A DNA stretch of 21,220 nt from a virus (Duplodnaviria > Heunggongvirae > Uroviricota > Caudoviricetes): the IMG/VR virus record IMGVR_UViG_2547132274_000016, positions 1 to 21,220 of that record. One strand, written 5' to 3'. Under the pieces are notes generated by a model. The model was given only the letters and a program-made list of their open reading frames with translations. It was not told the origin of the DNA and did no database searches. Below, piece after piece: positions 3,590 to 11,331 of the stretch; position 1 is the first letter of the stretch, and the number at the start of each line of letters is the position of its first letter. A program made the translations under genes and the position numbers.

Positions 3590-3652
3590 GTAATTAACCA
3601 GAGTTTTTAACGCACTTAATTGTGCGGGGCTTCTTTTTGCCTGGAGAAAGTC

Positions 3653-3877
3653 ATGCATACAGTTTCTGAAAATCAGTGCGGTATATACGCATTACTGCTG
3701 CAACAGGCCAGAACCGAAGCACAGGCCGACGCTGCGACGCGCTTTTCTTCTCATCTTGACGCCATGATTCGCCACATCACAAAGGCGGAGTTATCCCGCG
3801 TGGAGATAGTCGAGCTGCTCAGTCAGGAGTCGGAAAAATTTCACAATATCGGATTGTCTCGTGGGGAGGTGCTTTGA
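3653..3877 (+). CDS. Small early hypothetical protein (P2 orf80-region)
   Basis: ORF in early operon; GGAGA RBS before the ATG at 3653 (longer alternative from 3620). Confidence 0.45.
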
Positions 3878-4403: not shown

Positions 4404-4675
4404 GTATTCGTATCGAAATTGGCGAACGTTATGTCGTTACCAGTGACAGCTTTCAGTTTATTCTCCACGAGAAAAAGAGAGCGGAAAGCGGTAAAAACGC
4501 CGGCCAGGAATGGCTGGCGGTGGTTGGTTATTACCCGAAATTAAGCCAGCTCGTTTCCGGCATGATGCATCACGATATTCTGACCGGAAGCGCAAAATCT
4601 TTTGCTGATTTAAACGCGCAGGTTGAGCAACTCAGCAAGCGTTGTTCAGAGGCTTTTGGCTCACATGGCCGTTAA
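4400..4675 (+). CDS. Small early hypothetical protein immediately upstream of A
   Basis: 91-aa ORF, 4-nt start overlap with previous gene, 3' end overlaps the A start. Confidence 0.5.
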   Translation: MSIRIEIGERYVVTSDSFQFILHEKKRAESGKNAGQEWLAVVGYYPKLSQLVSGMMHHDILTGSAKSFADLNAQVEQLSKRCSEAFGSHGR

Positions 4676-6950
4676 AGCCTCCGGGCGTTTTGTCCCTCCG
4701 TCAGCATTTGCCGCAGGCACCGGTAAGGCGTTTACCGGTGCTTATGCATGGAACGCGCCACGCGAGGCTGTCGGGCGCGAAAGACCCCTTACACGTGACG
4801 AGATGCGTCAGGTGCAAGGTGTTTTATCCACGATTAACCGCCTGCCTTACTTTTTGCGCTCGCTGTTTACTTCACGCTATGACTACATCCGGCGCAATAA
4901 AAGCCCGGTGCACGGGTTTTATTTCCTCACATCCACTTTTCAGCGTCGTTTATGGCCGCGCATTGAGCGTGTGAATCAGCGCCATGAAATGAACACCGAC
5001 GCGTCGTTGCTGTTTCTGGCAGAGCGTGACCACTATGCGCGCCTGCCGGGAATGAATGACAAGGAGCTGAAAAAGTTTGCTGCCCATATCTCATCGCAGC
5101 TTTTCATGATGTATGAGGAACTCTGCGATGCCTGGGTGGATGCGCATGGCGAAAAAGAATCGCTGTTTACGGATGAGGCGCAGGCACATCTGTATGGTCA
5201 TGTTGCTGGCGCTGCACGTGCTTTCAATATTTCCCCGCTTTACTGGAAAAAATACCGTAAAGGGCAGATGACCACGAGGCAGGCATATTCTGCCATTGCC
5301 CGCCTGTTTAACGATGAGTGGTGGACTCATCAGCTTAAAGGCCAGCGTATGCGCTGGCATGAGGCGTTACTGATTGCTGTCGGGGAGGTCAATAAAGACC
5401 GTTCTCCTTATGCCAGTAAACATGCCATTCGTGATGTGCGTGCGCGCCGCCAGGCAAATCTGGAATTTCTTAAATCGTGTGACCTTGAAAACAAGGAAAC
5501 CGGCGAGCGCATCGACCTTATCAGTAAGGTGATGGGCAGTATTTCTAATCCAGAAATTCGCCGGATGGAGCTGATGAACACCATCGCCGGTATTGAGCGT
5601 TACGCCGCCGCAGAGGGTGATGTGGGGATGTTTATCACGCTGACCGCGCCGTCAAAGTATCACCCGACACGTCAGGTCAGAAAAGGCGAAAGTAAAACCG
5701 TCCAGCTAAATCACGGCTGGAACGATGAGGCATTTAATCCAAAGGATGCGCAGCGTTATCTCTGCCGTATCTGGAGCCTGATGCGCACGGCATTCAAGGA
5801 TAATGATTTACAGGCCTACGGTTTGCGAGTCGTCGAGCCACACCACGACGGAACGCCGCACTGGCATATGATGCTTTTTTGTAATCCACGCCAGCGTAAC
5901 CAGATTATTGAAATCATGCGTCGCTATGCGCTCAAAGAGGATGGCGACGAAAGAGGAGCCGCGCGAAACCGTTTTCAGGCAAAACACCTTAACCGGGGCG
6001 GTGCTGCGGGATATATCGCGAAATACATCTCAAAAAACATCGACGGCTATGCACTGGATGGTCAGCTCGATAACGATACCGGCAGACCGCTGAAAGATAC
6101 TGCGGCGGCTGTTACCGCATGGGCGTCAACGTGGCGCATTCCGCAATTTAAAACGGTTGGTCTGCCGACAATGGGGGCTTACCGTGAACTACGCAAATTG
6201 CCTCGCGGCGTCAGCATTGCTGATGAGTTTGACGAGCGCGTCGAGGCTGCACGCGCCGCTGCAGACAGTGGTGATTTTGCGTTGTATATCAGCGCGCAGG
6301 GCGGGGCAAATGTCCCGCGCGATTGTCAGACTGTCAGGGTCGCCCGTAGCCCGTCGGATGACGTTAACGAGTACGAGGAAGAAGTCGAGAGAGTGGTCGG
6401 CATTTACGCGCCGCATCTCGGCGCGCGTCATATTCATATCACCAGAACGACGGACTGGCGCATTGTTCCGAAAGTGCCGGTCGTTGAGCCTTTGACTTTA
6501 AAAAGCGGCATCGCCGCGCCTCGGAGTCCTGTCAATAACTGTGGAAAGCTCACCGGTGGTGATACTTCGTTACCGGCTCCCACACCTTCTGAGCACGCCG
6601 CAGCAGTACTTAATCTGGTTGATGACGGTGTTATCGAATGGAATGACCAGGAGGTCGTGAAGGCGCTAAGGGGCGCATTAAAACACGGGCTGAGAACGCC
6701 AAATCGTCAGCAAAGAAACGGAAGCCCGTTAAAACCGCATGAAATTGCACCATCGGCCAGACTGACACGGTCGGAACGAATGCAAATTACCCGTATTCGC
6801 GTTGACCTCGCTCAGAACGGTATCAGGCCGCAGCGATGGGAGCTTGAGGCGCTGGCGCGTGGCGCGACCGTAAATTATGACGGGAAAAAATTCACGTATC
6901 CGGTCGCTGATGAGTGGCCGGGATTCTCAACAGTAATGGAGTGGACATGA
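4665..6950 (+). CDS. A: Replication initiation endonuclease A (rolling-circle nickase, P2 gpA-like)
   Basis: 761 aa from MAVKASGRF (track ORF starts 14 codons earlier); contains the HxH metal motif region ...EPHHDGTPHWHMMLF...; length equals P2 A. Confidence 0.9.
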   Translation: MAVKASGRFVPPSAFAAGTGKAFTGAYAWNAPREAVGRERPLTRDEMRQVQGVLSTINRLPYFLRSLFTSRYDYIRRNKSPVHGFYFLTSTFQRRLWPRIERVNQRHEMNTDASLLFLAERDHYARLPGMNDKELKKFAAHISSQLFMMYEELCDAWVDAHGEKESLFTDEAQAHLYGHVAGAARAFNISPLYWKKYRKGQMTTRQAYSAIARLFNDEWWTHQLKGQRMRWHEALLIAVGEVNKDRSPYASKHAIRDVRARRQANLEFLKSCDLENKETGERIDLISKVMGSISNPEIRRMELMNTIAGIERYAAAEGDVGMFITLTAPSKYHPTRQVRKGESKTVQLNHGWNDEAFNPKDAQRYLCRIWSLMRTAFKDNDLQAYGLRVVEPHHDGTPHWHMMLFCNPRQRNQIIEIMRRYALKEDGDERGAARNRFQAKHLNRGGAAGYIAKYISKNIDGYALDGQLDNDTGRPLKDTAAAVTAWASTWRIPQFKTVGLPTMGAYRELRKLPRGVSIADEFDERVEAARAAADSGDFALYISAQGGANVPRDCQTVRVARSPSDDVNEYEEEVERVVGIYAPHLGARHIHITRTTDWRIVPKVPVVEPLTLKSGIAAPRSPVNNCGKLTGGDTSLPAPTPSEHAAAVLNLVDDGVIEWNDQEVVKALRGALKHGLRTPNRQQRNGSPLKPHEIAPSARLTRSERMQITRIRVDLAQNGIRPQRWELEALARGATVNYDGKKFTYPVADEWPGFSTVMEWT

Positions 6951-7402
6951 TGGCAAAAATTCACGAGGTAAAGCTGCACGCAAAATATTTCGACCTTGTG
7001 CTGGAAGGAAAGAAACGCGCAGAGTTTCGGAAAAATGACCGTAATTATGAGCGCGGGGACACGTTGATTTTGCATGAATGGGTGCAGGGTGTGTACACGG
7101 GGCGAAAGGTTGAAGCCCGGATAACAGATGTTACTGACCTGTCAGACTGGCTGGAAGATTATGTATTGCTAAGTATTGAGCTGCTTAATACAGGCACATA
7201 TGAGATTGTGAACTGGAAAGAACTTAGTGAGCGTGGTCTGGTATTCAGAATTAATCATGAAATTATGCATCAGCTCGGCCTTGCTGTTATGTATGAACCA
7301 GAGACGGGGATGTCTGGCGGGGCAATGGTTGCCATGGATGGAGCATGGAACTATTCAGATGAACAGATGGAGCGTGCACAGCAAAACGGGTGGCTTGGAT
7401 AA
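6947..7402 (+). CDS. DUF3850/ASCH-like (PUA-fold) domain protein, cargo gene 1
   Basis: Start ATG overlaps the A stop (ATGA); N-terminal ~70 aa (KIHEVKLHAKYFDLVLEGKKRAEFRKNDRNYERGDTLILHEW) resembles ASCH/DUF3850 domains; assignment from motif memory only. Confidence 0.55.
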   Translation: MMAKIHEVKLHAKYFDLVLEGKKRAEFRKNDRNYERGDTLILHEWVQGVYTGRKVEARITDVTDLSDWLEDYVLLSIELLNTGTYEIVNWKELSERGLVFRINHEIMHQLGLAVMYEPETGMSGGAMVAMDGAWNYSDEQMERAQQNGWLG

Positions 7403-7608
7403 TGCACAGAATACCAGGCGAGATACCGCACCATAAAACTAAAAATATCAAGCTGATGGCTATTGTTCAGCGTTTACAGCGGATTATGGTCAACGAAAAT
7501 CTGACGCCAGATGAGCTAGTCGGGTGTGCCGAAATAGTCCGGGATAATTACGGGCGGTTTAACCATATCGGTCAATCAAGAGTTACGCCACCACCACGCA
7601 GACGATAG
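7402..7608 (+). CDS. Small hypothetical protein, cargo gene 2
   Basis: 68-aa ORF whose ATG overlaps the upstream TAA (TAATG); basic C-terminus (PPPRRR); no recognisable domain. Confidence 0.4.
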   Translation: MHRIPGEIPHHKTKNIKLMAIVQRLQRIMVNENLTPDELVGCAEIVRDNYGRFNHIGQSRVTPPPRRR

Positions 7609-7837
7609 AGAACGCCGCCAGTCGTGAAACTTGTTTTCAGGGCTGGCGGGGTTGAACAACGAGCGAAGCGAGGCGTTAGTTGACAGTCATATTTTTACTG
7701 CGTTGGTGCTGGTTTTTGACGGTTGAAAGGAGTTAGCTCGGAGAGCTAAAGCTAACAACTTACAAATATTCAAAAGTAAGCTTCCTGTTGCTAACATAAG
7801 GTCGATTTTTTATGTGGATGATGCAAAAAGGATAGCT

Positions 7838-8569
7838 ATGGATATTGTAATCGCTTTTCTATCACTCGCTTTTTTCGTTGCTTTTTTCATCGGGTTAATC
7901 AAGCCATCACTGGTGCGGATGCCAAACCGTAAACGTGCAAGTGCGGTTTATCTCGGAGGTGGTTTTGCATTGAGCATAATTGGTTCAATACTCTACCCAA
8001 CAGAAAAAAGCCAGCCAGTTGCTAAAACTGAAACAGCAACCGTAGCAGAACACCAGGCTCAAAAAACATTCGAATATACTGAAAAAACACTCAAGGAATA
8101 TCGGAACGAGCCAAAGAAGACTCGACACGATATTGTGAATAGTTACATTAACTTTAAGAAAGTGCCAGTCACCGCATCAGATGCATTTTATGCCTGCATG
8201 AGTGAGTATACATTTACCAAAGATGATGAGTTGAAACTCGGTGATGTTCTTGGGTGGTGCTTTAATGATTATGAAAATGACCCGAATTCACTAAACAATA
8301 AAATCAATCTTGATACATTTCAGAGCAATTTTAGTGGTTGGGATGGTTCTTATCGTCCATTGGAAAAACTAATTAAAGATAATATGAACGATGATTCATC
8401 TTATAAACATGTGTCAACGGTATATCATTTGGTTTTGAATAAAGACCCGCACGCCATTGTGAAAACCACATTTCGTGGCACTAATGCTTATGGAGGAGTA
8501 GTTAAACAGACTATTGCTGCGCGTGTCGACATCCGAACGGGCGAAGTCGTTTCAGTATTAGATAACTAA
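7838..8569 (+). CDS. Membrane-anchored hypothetical protein (two N-terminal TM helices plus ~175-aa soluble domain), cargo gene 3
   Basis: AAGGA RBS 5 nt before the ATG at 7838 (track ORF from GTG 7814); hydrophobic stretches IVIAFLSLAFFVAFFIGLI and AVYLGGGFALSIIGSIL; AT-rich codon usage unlike the phage backbone. Confidence 0.6.
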   Translation: MDIVIAFLSLAFFVAFFIGLIKPSLVRMPNRKRASAVYLGGGFALSIIGSILYPTEKSQPVAKTETATVAEHQAQKTFEYTEKTLKEYRNEPKKTRHDIVNSYINFKKVPVTASDAFYACMSEYTFTKDDELKLGDVLGWCFNDYENDPNSLNNKINLDTFQSNFSGWDGSYRPLEKLIKDNMNDDSSYKHVSTVYHLVLNKDPHAIVKTTFRGTNAYGGVVKQTIAARVDIRTGEVVSVLDN

Positions 8570-8572
8570 TCG

Positions 8573-8634
8573 TTGATGCCGTATTGACACTTGTTATACT
8601 AGTGGTGGAACGAGACTGTAATAGTCTGTTCCAC
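8573..8634 (+). promoter_or_regulatory. Candidate sigma70 promoter (TTGATG-16 bp-TGtTATACT) followed by a 30-bp imperfect palindrome (operator or 5'-UTR hairpin)
   Basis: -35-like TTGATG 8573..8578, extended -10 TGTTATACT 8592..8600; palindrome GTGGAACgagACTgtaatAGTctgTTCCAC 8605..8634 directly downstream; GAGGGA RBS at 8673. Confidence 0.35.
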
Positions 8635-8681
8635 TACAGGAGTAATTACCTTGACTGTAAGTTGCTTTTATTGAGGGAACT

Positions 8682-9971
8682 ATGAAGTTTAAGACTGAAT
8701 TGAGTCGAAAATTGCATGACTCGGTAGTGTTTGATTTGAAAAAAGACCTGGTAAAATTAGAGGGAAACCTAAAAAATACAGATTTGTTGTTGTCGTTTCA
8801 GTTCAAAATAATAAGGAATATAATTAGAAGTGAAAGGATGATCAAAGAATTAAAGTCTTTCTTAGGGGAACTAAAGGCAACAAAAAGAAAAGGTGGTTTA
8901 AAAAAAGAACAATCTAAACTTATTAAGGAAAATATTAAGAGTGTTGAGCAGGGTATTGATGATGTGAAATTTAAAATATATATCTTCAAAATGTTTGGTG
9001 ATAGTGTTGCTTTTTTGTATTTGGATAAGTTTGATATTAAGCATTTTTTTTATAATGTTGTGGATTACAGTCCCAAGGAGTCAGCGGGCTATATGGGAGG
9101 GAAGGATGGCTTAAAAGAAGAATGGGAATTGGTGAAGAAGGCCTGCAAGGCTGGTGTTCCTACGTTACTCAATGATATTACAATGAGTATGAGGCATGGT
9201 GATGTTTGTTTACTTGGTGAAGGTGCACCAGTACTGGTGGAGGTGAAATCAAGTCAAAATAAAAATGATCGTGTTGAACGTCAAAAAAATAACCTTAATA
9301 GACTAGCTGAATTTTTAGCAGAAGATAAAGCTGAAGATTTTAGAGGGATGCCATTAGTGTTAAGGAAAGAACTGTGTTTTTCAGAAGTTACATATAAAAA
9401 AGAATTTAATGAGCATCTGAATGTATGCAGGAAAAAAGGAATTTCATGGGTAAGGCTAGAAGATGGATTTTATGTGGTATCTAATCGTGGCTGTGATCTG
9501 GAAATAGCATTATCACAGTTGGATCTTAGAGGGAGGAAAATTGCACCTATATTTTTGAATGAATATAAAAATAATCAATTGTGGGTTCCTTTAACTCCGT
9601 TTGTTAATCTTATAAATGATGCGCGTGATTTGTGTGACTTTATAAATGGGGAGTTAACTATTCTCTGTGTTCTTGATTTGGATTGTTTTAAACAAATAGC
9701 TTTGAATGAAGGGTTTGAGCTTGTTTTTGTCGATGGTGAAGACTATTCGATGATATTTAAAGAATTTGGTAGCTCATTGATTTGGGGTGTGTCATGGCAA
9801 ATGATGCTTCGCACTCCTTTAGAAATGGTGTCAATGTCTTGGTTAATTAAAGATTCAATTGATAGATTTAAGCGTTTACAAAAGCAACATGCTGAGATGC
9901 AGCCTGTCACTGATGTTAATACATCCGAAACCTCCTTGTTTGAAAAATATAGGCCTCTTTTTACAAAGTAG
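8682..9971 (+). CDS. Hypothetical protein with PD-(D/E)xK-like nuclease motif, cargo gene 4
   Basis: 429 aa, strong RBS; K/E-rich N-terminal region, then GD(174)-x12-VLVE(187)VK(189) resembling the PD-(D/E)xK catalytic core; no P-loop; very AT-rich. Confidence 0.6.
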   Translation: MKFKTELSRKLHDSVVFDLKKDLVKLEGNLKNTDLLLSFQFKIIRNIIRSERMIKELKSFLGELKATKRKGGLKKEQSKLIKENIKSVEQGIDDVKFKIYIFKMFGDSVAFLYLDKFDIKHFFYNVVDYSPKESAGYMGGKDGLKEEWELVKKACKAGVPTLLNDITMSMRHGDVCLLGEGAPVLVEVKSSQNKNDRVERQKNNLNRLAEFLAEDKAEDFRGMPLVLRKELCFSEVTYKKEFNEHLNVCRKKGISWVRLEDGFYVVSNRGCDLEIALSQLDLRGRKIAPIFLNEYKNNQLWVPLTPFVNLINDARDLCDFINGELTILCVLDLDCFKQIALNEGFELVFVDGEDYSMIFKEFGSSLIWGVSWQMMLRTPLEMVSMSWLIKDSIDRFKRLQKQHAEMQPVTDVNTSETSLFEKYRPLFTK

Positions 9972-10108
9972 TCAGATGCTGTAGGTGTATATGCTATTGC
10001 ATTAATTTGCATGCAAAACAAGTAGAGGTAAAAACTCTTACAGGCTGCTTGGGGGATAGCTTTTGAATGCTAATGCATTTGCATTCAAATTGCCCCACGA
10101 AGCGGGCG

Positions 10109-10127
10109 GGCGAGGCGGGGAAAGCAC
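10109..10127. other. Candidate cos cohesive-end sequence (GGCGAGGCGGGGAAAGCAC)
   Basis: GC-rich non-coding stretch between cargo and Q, where cos lies in a P2 prophage; 19-mer matches my recollection of the P2 cohesive end (to be verified). Confidence 0.5.
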
Positions 10128-10296: not shown

Positions 10297-11331
10297 TCAG
10301 CCGTTGTCAGTGTCCAGTGAGTAGTTTTTAAAGCGGATGACCTCCTGACCGAGCCAGCCGTTTATTTCCCGAATCCTGTCCTGTAACGGGATAAGCTCAT
10401 TGCGGACAAAGACCTTTGCCACTTTCTCAATATCGCCCAGTGACCCGACGTTCTCCGGCTTGCCGCCCATCAACTGAAAGGGGATGCGGTGCGCGTCCAG
10501 CAGGTCTGCGGCGCTGGCTTTTTTGATATTAAAAAAATCATCCTTCGTTGCCACTTCACTGAGCGGGATAATTTTAATGCCGTCGGCTTTCCCCTGTGGG
10601 GCATAGAGAAACAGATTTTTAAAGTTATTGCGGCCTTTCGACTTCACCATGTTTTCGCGGAGCATTTCGATATCGTTGCGATCCTGCACGGCATCGGTGA
10701 CGTACATGATGTATCCGGCATGTGCGCCGTTTTCGTAATACTTGCGGCGGAACAGCGTGGCTGATTCATTCAGCCAGGCAGAGTTAAGGGCGCTGAGATA
10801 TTCCGGCAGGCCGTACAGCTCCTGATTAATATCCGGCTCCAGCAGGTGAAACACGGAACCGGGCGCGAAGGCTGTCGGCTCGTTGAAGGACGGCACCCAC
10901 CAGTAAACATCCTCTTCCACACCACGGCGGGTATATTTTGCCGGTGAGATTTCCAGTCTGATGACCTTACCGGTGGTGCTGTAACGCTTTTCCAGAAACG
11001 CATTACCGAACACCAGAAAATCCAGCACAAAGCGGCTGAAATCCTACTGGGAAAGCCACGGATGCGGGATAAATGTCGAGGCCAGAATATTACGTTTGAC
11101 GTAAATCGGTGAGCTGTGATGTACGGCAGCACGCAGGCTTTTTGCCAGACCGGTAAAGCTGATCGGTGGCTCATACCATCTGCCGTTACTGATGCACTCG
11201 ACGTAATCCAGAATGTCACGGCGGTCGAGTACCGGCACCGGCTCACCAAAGGTGAATGCCTCCATTTTCGGGGCGCTGGCGGTCATTTTTTTTGCCGCAG
11301 GTTGCGGTGTTTTCCCTTTTTTCTTGCTCAT
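10297..11331 (-). pseudogene. Q: Portal protein gpQ interrupted by one in-frame TAG codon at 11044..11046
   Basis: Two ORFs (11044..11331, 95 aa; 10297..11028, 243 aa) are in the same frame and separated only by TAG; together ~344 codons as in P2 Q; reading through gives ...PWLSQ*DFSRFVLDFLVF... Confidence 0.6.

Follow-up and report, generated by a model that had tools for sequence, protein, structure and literature searches.

Two small genes that follow replication gene A in a P2-like (Peduovirus) prophage, referred to here as gene 1 and gene 2, are probably optional distal genes of the early operon, providing a dispensable nucleic-acid factor for the lytic cycle, either in support of replication or in counter-defense. 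The prophage occupies the whole of the 21,220-nucleotide stretch of DNA that was analyzed (IMG/VR virus record IMGVR_UViG_2547132274_000016, positions 1 to 21,220; hereafter the window). The pair, which belongs to the phage and not to the cargo, would close the P2-type early (replication) operon. Its translation probably proceeds by coupling to gene A or by re-initiation behind it, so that the two proteins would appear in infection or induction but not while the prophage is repressed. Gene 1 joins a PUA-like ASCH/DUF3850 module to a second domain, DUF7415, with the predicted helical-hairpin protein encoded by gene 2 most likely working with the DUF7415 part. Together the two proteins would act on nucleic acid in lytic growth, either supporting replication or processing of the phage DNA or shielding the phage from defenses of the host or of a rival, and a conserved hairpin after gene 2 would mark where the unit has its 3' end and where the cos-proximal defense hotspot starts on the left. 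The features referred to below are as follows.

4623–6950, + strand: replication gene A, a rolling-circle endonuclease gene, from the open reading frame (ORF) list; gpA of Peduovirus phages is 97–98% identical.
6950–7402, + strand: gene 1, P2 orf91 in its full-length version, coding for ASCH/DUF3850 plus DUF7415 in 150–151 amino acids (aa); phrog_1812, E=1e-81.
6959–7183, + strand: ASCH/DUF3850 PUA-like beta-barrel domain of gene 1, residues 5–79, with a GxKxxExR motif (G21–R28).
7205–7384, + strand: DUF7415 of gene 1, about residues 87–146, a small alpha/beta domain, from Pfam, alignment, a model and 187 representative clusters.
7402–7608, + strand: gene 2, coding for 68 aa; phrog_11386, E=4e-39.
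7613–7651, + strand: conserved hairpin of 15 pairs with a CTTG loop, directly 3' of the gene 2 stop; z=-3.2 against shuffles.
7652–7679, + strand: conserved 28-nt box TTGAACAACGAGCGAAGCGAGGCGTTAG, the left border of the variable slot; homology ends after its last base.
7680–10060, no strand assigned: variable cos-proximal cargo slot, here with genes for a 251-aa membrane protein (7814–8569) and a 429-aa protein (8682–9971).
10062–10127, no strand assigned: right border of the slot, a palindrome (10062–10089) followed by a 19-nt cos sequence (10109–10127).

The open reading frames, their junctions and their coding signal bear out the original prediction that two small genes are tightly joined to A. 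The gene 1 reading frame has 151 codons from the ATG at 6947 to the TAA at 7400–7402, with a second in-frame ATG at 6950, and that of gene 2 has 68 codons from the ATG at 7402 to the TAG at 7606–7608; the TGA stop of gene A (6948–6950) overlaps the start of gene 1. The two junctions that had been named, ATGA between A and gene 1 (6947–6950, counted from the first ATG) and TAATG between gene 1 and gene 2 (7400–7404), are both present in the window. The second ATG (ATGGCA, 6950) is kept in all 46 distinct related loci, whereas the first reads ATA, ATC or ATT in 12 of them, and the conserved start of gene 1 is therefore at 6950, which makes its junction with A a TGATG with a 1-nt overlap; the TAATG junction is kept in 41 of the 46. 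Differences among homologues at codon positions 1, 2 and 3 number 131, 99 and 253 for gene 1 and 131, 71 and 244 for gene 2, such that the third position dominates in each, and the share of changed codons that are synonymous is about 48% in the reading frame but about 20% in both shifted frames. Both are genuine protein-coding genes. The pair also has the layout of an operon, being on the strand of A, with overlapping codons and with no same-strand terminator-like site between A and 7609. Between 6700 and 10400 there are 11 promoter-like sites where 8 ± 3 are expected, none of them above chance, and four terminator-like sites, again at chance level, only one of which lies before 7609, within gene A and antisense to it.

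The pair is independent of the cargo that follows it. Among the 112 IMG/VR loci that form the comparison set, gene 2 directly follows gene 1 in all 55 with a full-length gene 1, and what lies between gene 2 and the portal gene sorts into 25 distinct cargo clusters, with the cargo of the window in only two loci. Homology between loci stops at 7679/7680, 72 nt past gene 2, in a nucleotide-sharp break directly after GCGTTAG; homology to the window ends at 7679–7683 in nearly all of these loci and resumes at 10059–10080. The slot thus starts at 7680, after the pair and the conserved hairpin, which places the pair outside the variable slot and agrees with its predicted position at the slot entry. 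Across the 25 cargo clusters homology runs through the pair to 7679, so that the pair is not part of the segment exchanged between otherwise near-identical phages, and it is replaced only in rarer second-level variants with breaks at 6927 and at 7170–7183. The P2-type break at 7170–7183 (loci L056–L060) leaves the ASCH half alone; in another lineage (L105, 6947–8177, and also L102–L112) a DUF2158 gene and a 226-aa ORF replace 6927–7420, and gene 2 has lost its first 18 codons, starts at Met19 and codes for 51 aa. Some records label this 51-aa product a 'meiotically up-regulated 80 protein'.

Complete E. coli genomes show how common the arrangement is. The flanking A and portal genes are found in 2185 of them, gene 2 together with the border element (by blastn) in 567, and the pair in 389 (345 at a coverage of at least 80%), and in many prophages A is followed by cargo directly. 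Of the condition that was to count against the original prediction, presence in most P2-like phages whatever their cargo, one half holds, in that the independence stands and the prevalence does not: it is carried by a minority, about 18% of the E. coli genomes with P2-like flanks and about one third of the sequenced phages of the genus Peduovirus. A phage collection holds 382 records with gpA homologues (77 at an identity of at least 90%), 34 with gene 2 and 27 with gene 1 DNA. P2-like prophages of the Enterobacter type keep the pair ahead of other cargo, with identities of about 55% for gene 1 and 63–65% for gene 2.

The first gene had been assigned an ASCH/DUF3850 PUA-like fold, and profile matches above the Pfam cut-offs confirm it. 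DUF3850/ASCH matches at residues 5–77 (PF12961, 65.1 bits against a cut-off of 22.9; PF04266, 43.6 bits against 21.2) and DUF7415 at residues 87–128 (PF24187, 53.2 bits against 27). The N-terminal domain has the small beta-barrel of the ASCH fold, matches the sequence of a solved 83-residue ASCH protein (PDB 3IUW) with E=1.3e-13, and aligns over residues 1–84 with phrog_986, a family of 253 positions labeled 'RNA-binding protein'. The ASCH signature reads G21-K22-K23-R24-A25-E26-F27-R28; K23 and R28 are invariant among full-length gene 1 homologues, and E26 is lost in two diverged ones. In other proteins, modules of the ASCH type have RNA, single-stranded nucleic acid or modified bases as ligands, and the gene 1 product is predicted to bind nucleic acid as well. 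Compared with other ASCH/DUF3850 proteins (3IUW, E. coli YqfB, a Zymomonas ASCH protein and the ASCH domain of human TRIP4), it differs by the additional DUF7415. In YqfB a threonine, its catalytic residue, stands where gene 1 has E26, and ac4C amidohydrolase activity can therefore not be assumed for gene 1.

The DUF7415 half has a conserved core (W.ELS..GL.FRIN.EILHPLGLA...G.S.GA.VA.DG.W), and an alignment of 27 diverse members retains G-L..RIN.E..H.LG...S...DG. We considered a metallopeptidase-like HExxH site (NHEIMH) within it and rejected it, since other members have K, N, R, A or T in place of the first histidine. The domain is widespread, with 924 phage records by tblastn, including virulent T4-like and T5-like phages, and 187 representative clusters in an exhaustive search; T1-like phages have ASCH proteins of similar length in BFVD. 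Elsewhere too it occurs next to genes for replication or DNA methylation, and the codons often overlap. In another P2-like lineage (L119) a DUF7415 gene and the stop of a Toprim primase gene overlap, in L114 one lies 18 nt after a primase gene, and in L123 one follows a helicase gene; in a 186-like prophage (L121) it stands between a DksA-type zinc-finger gene and Dam methylase and gpA genes, and in L125 the overlap is with the stop of a C5 methylase gene. In T4-like Klebsiella phages the domain is encoded in an early accessory region that also codes for Acb1 and a NUDIX protein. We found no paper naming DUF7415, and the only literature found on DUF3850 was a survey of ParB fusions. That survey describes ParB-CTPase-DUF3850 fusions that are enriched in prophages, with DUF3850 as a module in phage proteins acting on DNA or nucleotides (PNAS 2025, PMC12704722); gene 1 differs in having neither a ParB domain nor a neighboring parA, its partner being DUF7415.

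The gene 2 product is modeled as a two-helix hairpin, with predicted helices at residues 10–31 and 36–59 and disordered ends. Its core KLMAIV...RDNYG is invariant, and its tail is variable, often with PPPRRR at the end. Relatives are confined to Enterobacteriaceae prophages (179 clusters); none was found in Pfam or NCBIfam, and a sequence search of PDB returned noise only, with no fold match. Two candidate relatives were discarded, as neither the early ORF at 3620–3877 (which has ...F[HN][NH]IG.SR... in common with gene 2) nor Orf97 of phage 186 aligns with it. A hint of joint action with DUF7415 comes from a single Rosetta-stone protein, the metagenomic P0184 (L114, 2597–3163), in whose 188 aa a gene 2-like N-terminus (BLASTP 4e-8, hhalign 92%, hmmsearch 5e-8) is joined to DUF7415, with a ClpX-type C4 zinc ribbon (sub-threshold in Pfam, E=6e-4) also present. 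Among the 342 proteins collected, the only further fusion of gene 2 and DUF7415 is a read-through artefact, P0002. The P0184 gene lies downstream of a Toprim primase gene and is followed by a canonical terminator and then a Gp49/HigB-like toxin gene.

The pair is already present and annotated in public phage genomes, with no function reported, and several sequenced phages of the genus Peduovirus carry the whole 662-nt stretch at 96–98% identity. In P2 itself, Orf91 has the position of gene 1, overlaps the A stop on the strand of A, and is 97% identical over its first 224 nt; it has DUF3850 like gene 1, but consists of just the ASCH half with an unrelated tail, and beyond it lie tin and old, on the opposite strand. 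The Wphi record divides gene 1 into gp91 (the ASCH half) and gp92 (the DUF7415 half) and leaves the gene 2 ORF unannotated; the annotation thus removes gp92 as a candidate for gene 2. The early lytic operon of phage 186 offers a parallel in its small genes with overlapping codons around A, labeled 'not essential', with translational coupling into A documented in the record, and the 186-like prophage mentioned above has its DUF7415 gene at such an accessory position, between the DksA-like zinc-finger gene and A. The accessory genes of 186 are, however, upstream of A and code for other domains (exonuclease-like, DUF5405, PAPS reductase), whereas the pair in the window is downstream.

The hairpin and box between gene 2 and the slot form a conserved border element, with compensatory double changes in seven of the 15 hairpin pairs across 16 sequences. 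The element is also present in PSP3 and, in phage 186, behind orf97, where the annotated terminator t95b comes about 25 nt later; some E. coli prophages have it but lack gene 2. Its absence from P2 rules out an essential replication or packaging site, and it is not t95b, which is a different element farther downstream; candidate roles are those of a structure at an RNA 3' end and of a recombination border. No Rfam match was found over the whole window. Four loci (L014, L017, L020 and L036) have a second copy of the 7611–7690 element farther downstream, at 81–91% identity, which suggests tandem cassettes, each preceded by a border element. At the other end of the slot, the palindrome is a perfect 14+14 (TTTGAATGCTAATG/CATTTGCATTCAAA) and lies 20 nt left of the 19-nt P2 cos sequence, which has an exact single match in the window.

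The genome organization of the window runs from a repressor/cox region through the early genes, gene A, the pair, the two-gene cargo and cos to the portal gene Q and the terminase gene P (on the opposite strand) and the late genes. The GC content is 52–59% in the backbone, intermediate in the pair (45–48%), and 29–41% in the cargo. The 251-aa cargo protein has an N-terminal membrane segment and belongs to phrog_3403, and the 429-aa protein belongs to phrog_14906; neither has a match in Pfam, PADLOC or NCBIfam, and PADLOC and NCBIfam likewise gave nothing useful for the pair. The 251-aa gene is found in 84 E. coli genomes and in seven IMG/VR cargo clusters with differing second genes, and its product could be a common component of several candidate two-gene systems. 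The portal gene Q has an in-frame amber TAG (11044–11046, minus strand) where its relatives read CAG, splitting it into ORFs of 95 and 243 aa, and the prophage may be defective or descended from an amber mutant.

Two readings that take up roles proposed in the original prediction would tie the pair to the cargo or to the lysogen. According to one, the pair is an accessory of the downstream module (given there as 7838–9971, here as 7814–9971), the four genes making up one defense system. The 251-aa gene does sit directly beside the pair wherever this was checked, 16 of the 17 E. coli genomes with both cargo genes span the pair, and a 'DUF3850/ASCH + hypothetical x3' arrangement has been catalogued (Rousset et al. 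2022, PMC9122126). This co-occurrence is one-way, since the pair is in 389 genomes and both cargo genes in 17, and it fits cassette exchange in a sub-lineage with a common left flank; the window's cargo accompanies only 16 of the 345–389 pair-bearing genomes, leaving more than 300 without it, the pair precedes all 25 cargo clusters, and a sharp homology break and the conserved hairpin separate pair from cargo, which also differ in GC. A four-gene system is accordingly most improbable. According to the other, the two are moron or defense genes of the hotspot, expressed from the prophage to protect the lysogen in the manner of old and tin, and their location between gpA and gpQ, the interval by which the P2 cos-proximal hotspot is defined (Rousset et al. 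2022, PMC9122126), would suit this, as would their optional presence, a GC content somewhat below that of the backbone, and the inclusion of P2 orf91 in the cloned 'old-tin' construct that conferred broad protection in the same study. Yet the point of cargo exchange is at 7680, so that the pair, although within that interval, is outside the hypervariable segment; no promoter stands above chance and the start codon overlaps the A stop, whereas P2 old and tin use their own opposite-strand promoter; PADLOC returned only noise for gene 1 (E=0.024) and nothing for gene 2, giving no similarity to defense proteins; and DUF7415 is frequent among phages that are strictly virulent and so form no lysogen in need of protection. 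We consider a moron very unlikely, and the pair probably does not serve in a prophage-expressed defense.

Counter-defense, which is a sub-case of the explanation we favor, is a tentative possibility. The ASCH reader, or DUF7415 with gene 2, would bind or inactivate an immune component of the host or of a rival phage, or would mask or process phage nucleic acid early in infection. The presumed early expression with replication genes points this way, as do the patchy and dispensable distribution typical of such genes, the modified-base readers in the PUA-like superfamily (YTH, EVE and the McrB N-terminal domain), and the company DUF7415 keeps, with Acb1 and NUDIX genes in the T4-like Klebsiella phages and adjoining Dam or C5 methylase genes elsewhere. 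Dam and C5 methylases are classic anti-restriction genes. This neighborhood evidence is weak, though, and no likeness to a characterized anti-defense protein was found, no anti-defense library having been searched. A 2026 survey with the DefenseFinder anti-defense models recorded only Anti_RM and Anti_CRISPR, in 28 of 1511 P2 elements, so that a pair as common as this one goes unrecognized by those models.

Several observations weigh against the broader explanation that we prefer, in which the pair are optional early-operon genes acting on nucleic acid. The pair is missing from about 80% of E. coli P2-like prophages, and P2 has neither DUF7415, gene 2 nor the hairpin and box; any role of the pair is therefore dispensable. 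The methods section of a preprint terms P2 orf91 'essential', with no citation (bioRxiv 10.1101/2025.08.28.672839). We note that this label fits poorly with the lack of orf91 homologues in most P2-like prophages. The 186-like phage PSP3 has gene 2 without gene 1, after tumA/tumB, and the DUF2158 lineage has its truncated gene 2 after unrelated genes, so that gene 2 does not strictly need DUF7415, and the fusion that would link the two is one metagenomic protein. No U tract accompanies the hairpin after gene 2, which makes it at most a candidate terminator, and the annotated terminator of 186 is about 25 nt farther on. Finally, co-transcription with A, translational coupling and expression confined to the lytic cycle are all read from sequence alone.

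A bolder version of the favored explanation, which we think unlikely, is that the pair forms a new two-protein module for counter-defense or host takeover, in which a PUA-like reader with DUF7415, aided by gene 2, would recognize modified or single-stranded nucleic acid and protect replicating phage DNA. In that case DUF7415 would be an effector domain of early phage growth that is widespread but so far unrecognized, in T4-, T5- and T1-like phages also. As a separate matter, the covarying hairpin and the box at 7613–7679 could be a defined cassette border for site-specific cargo exchange in P2- and 186-like phages.

The pair marks the end of the phage backbone and the start of the exchangeable defense cargo, and surveys or clonings in which 'the system' is equated with the whole gpA–gpQ interval wrongly attach it to many unrelated defense systems, the cloned P2 'old-tin' construct that contained orf91 being an example. 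The sharply bounded hairpin and box provide a precise landmark for studies of cargo swapping. Should the pair or DUF7415 prove to act in counter-defense or as a replication accessory, this would give a function to a domain that is present in the genomes of about 900 sequenced phages.

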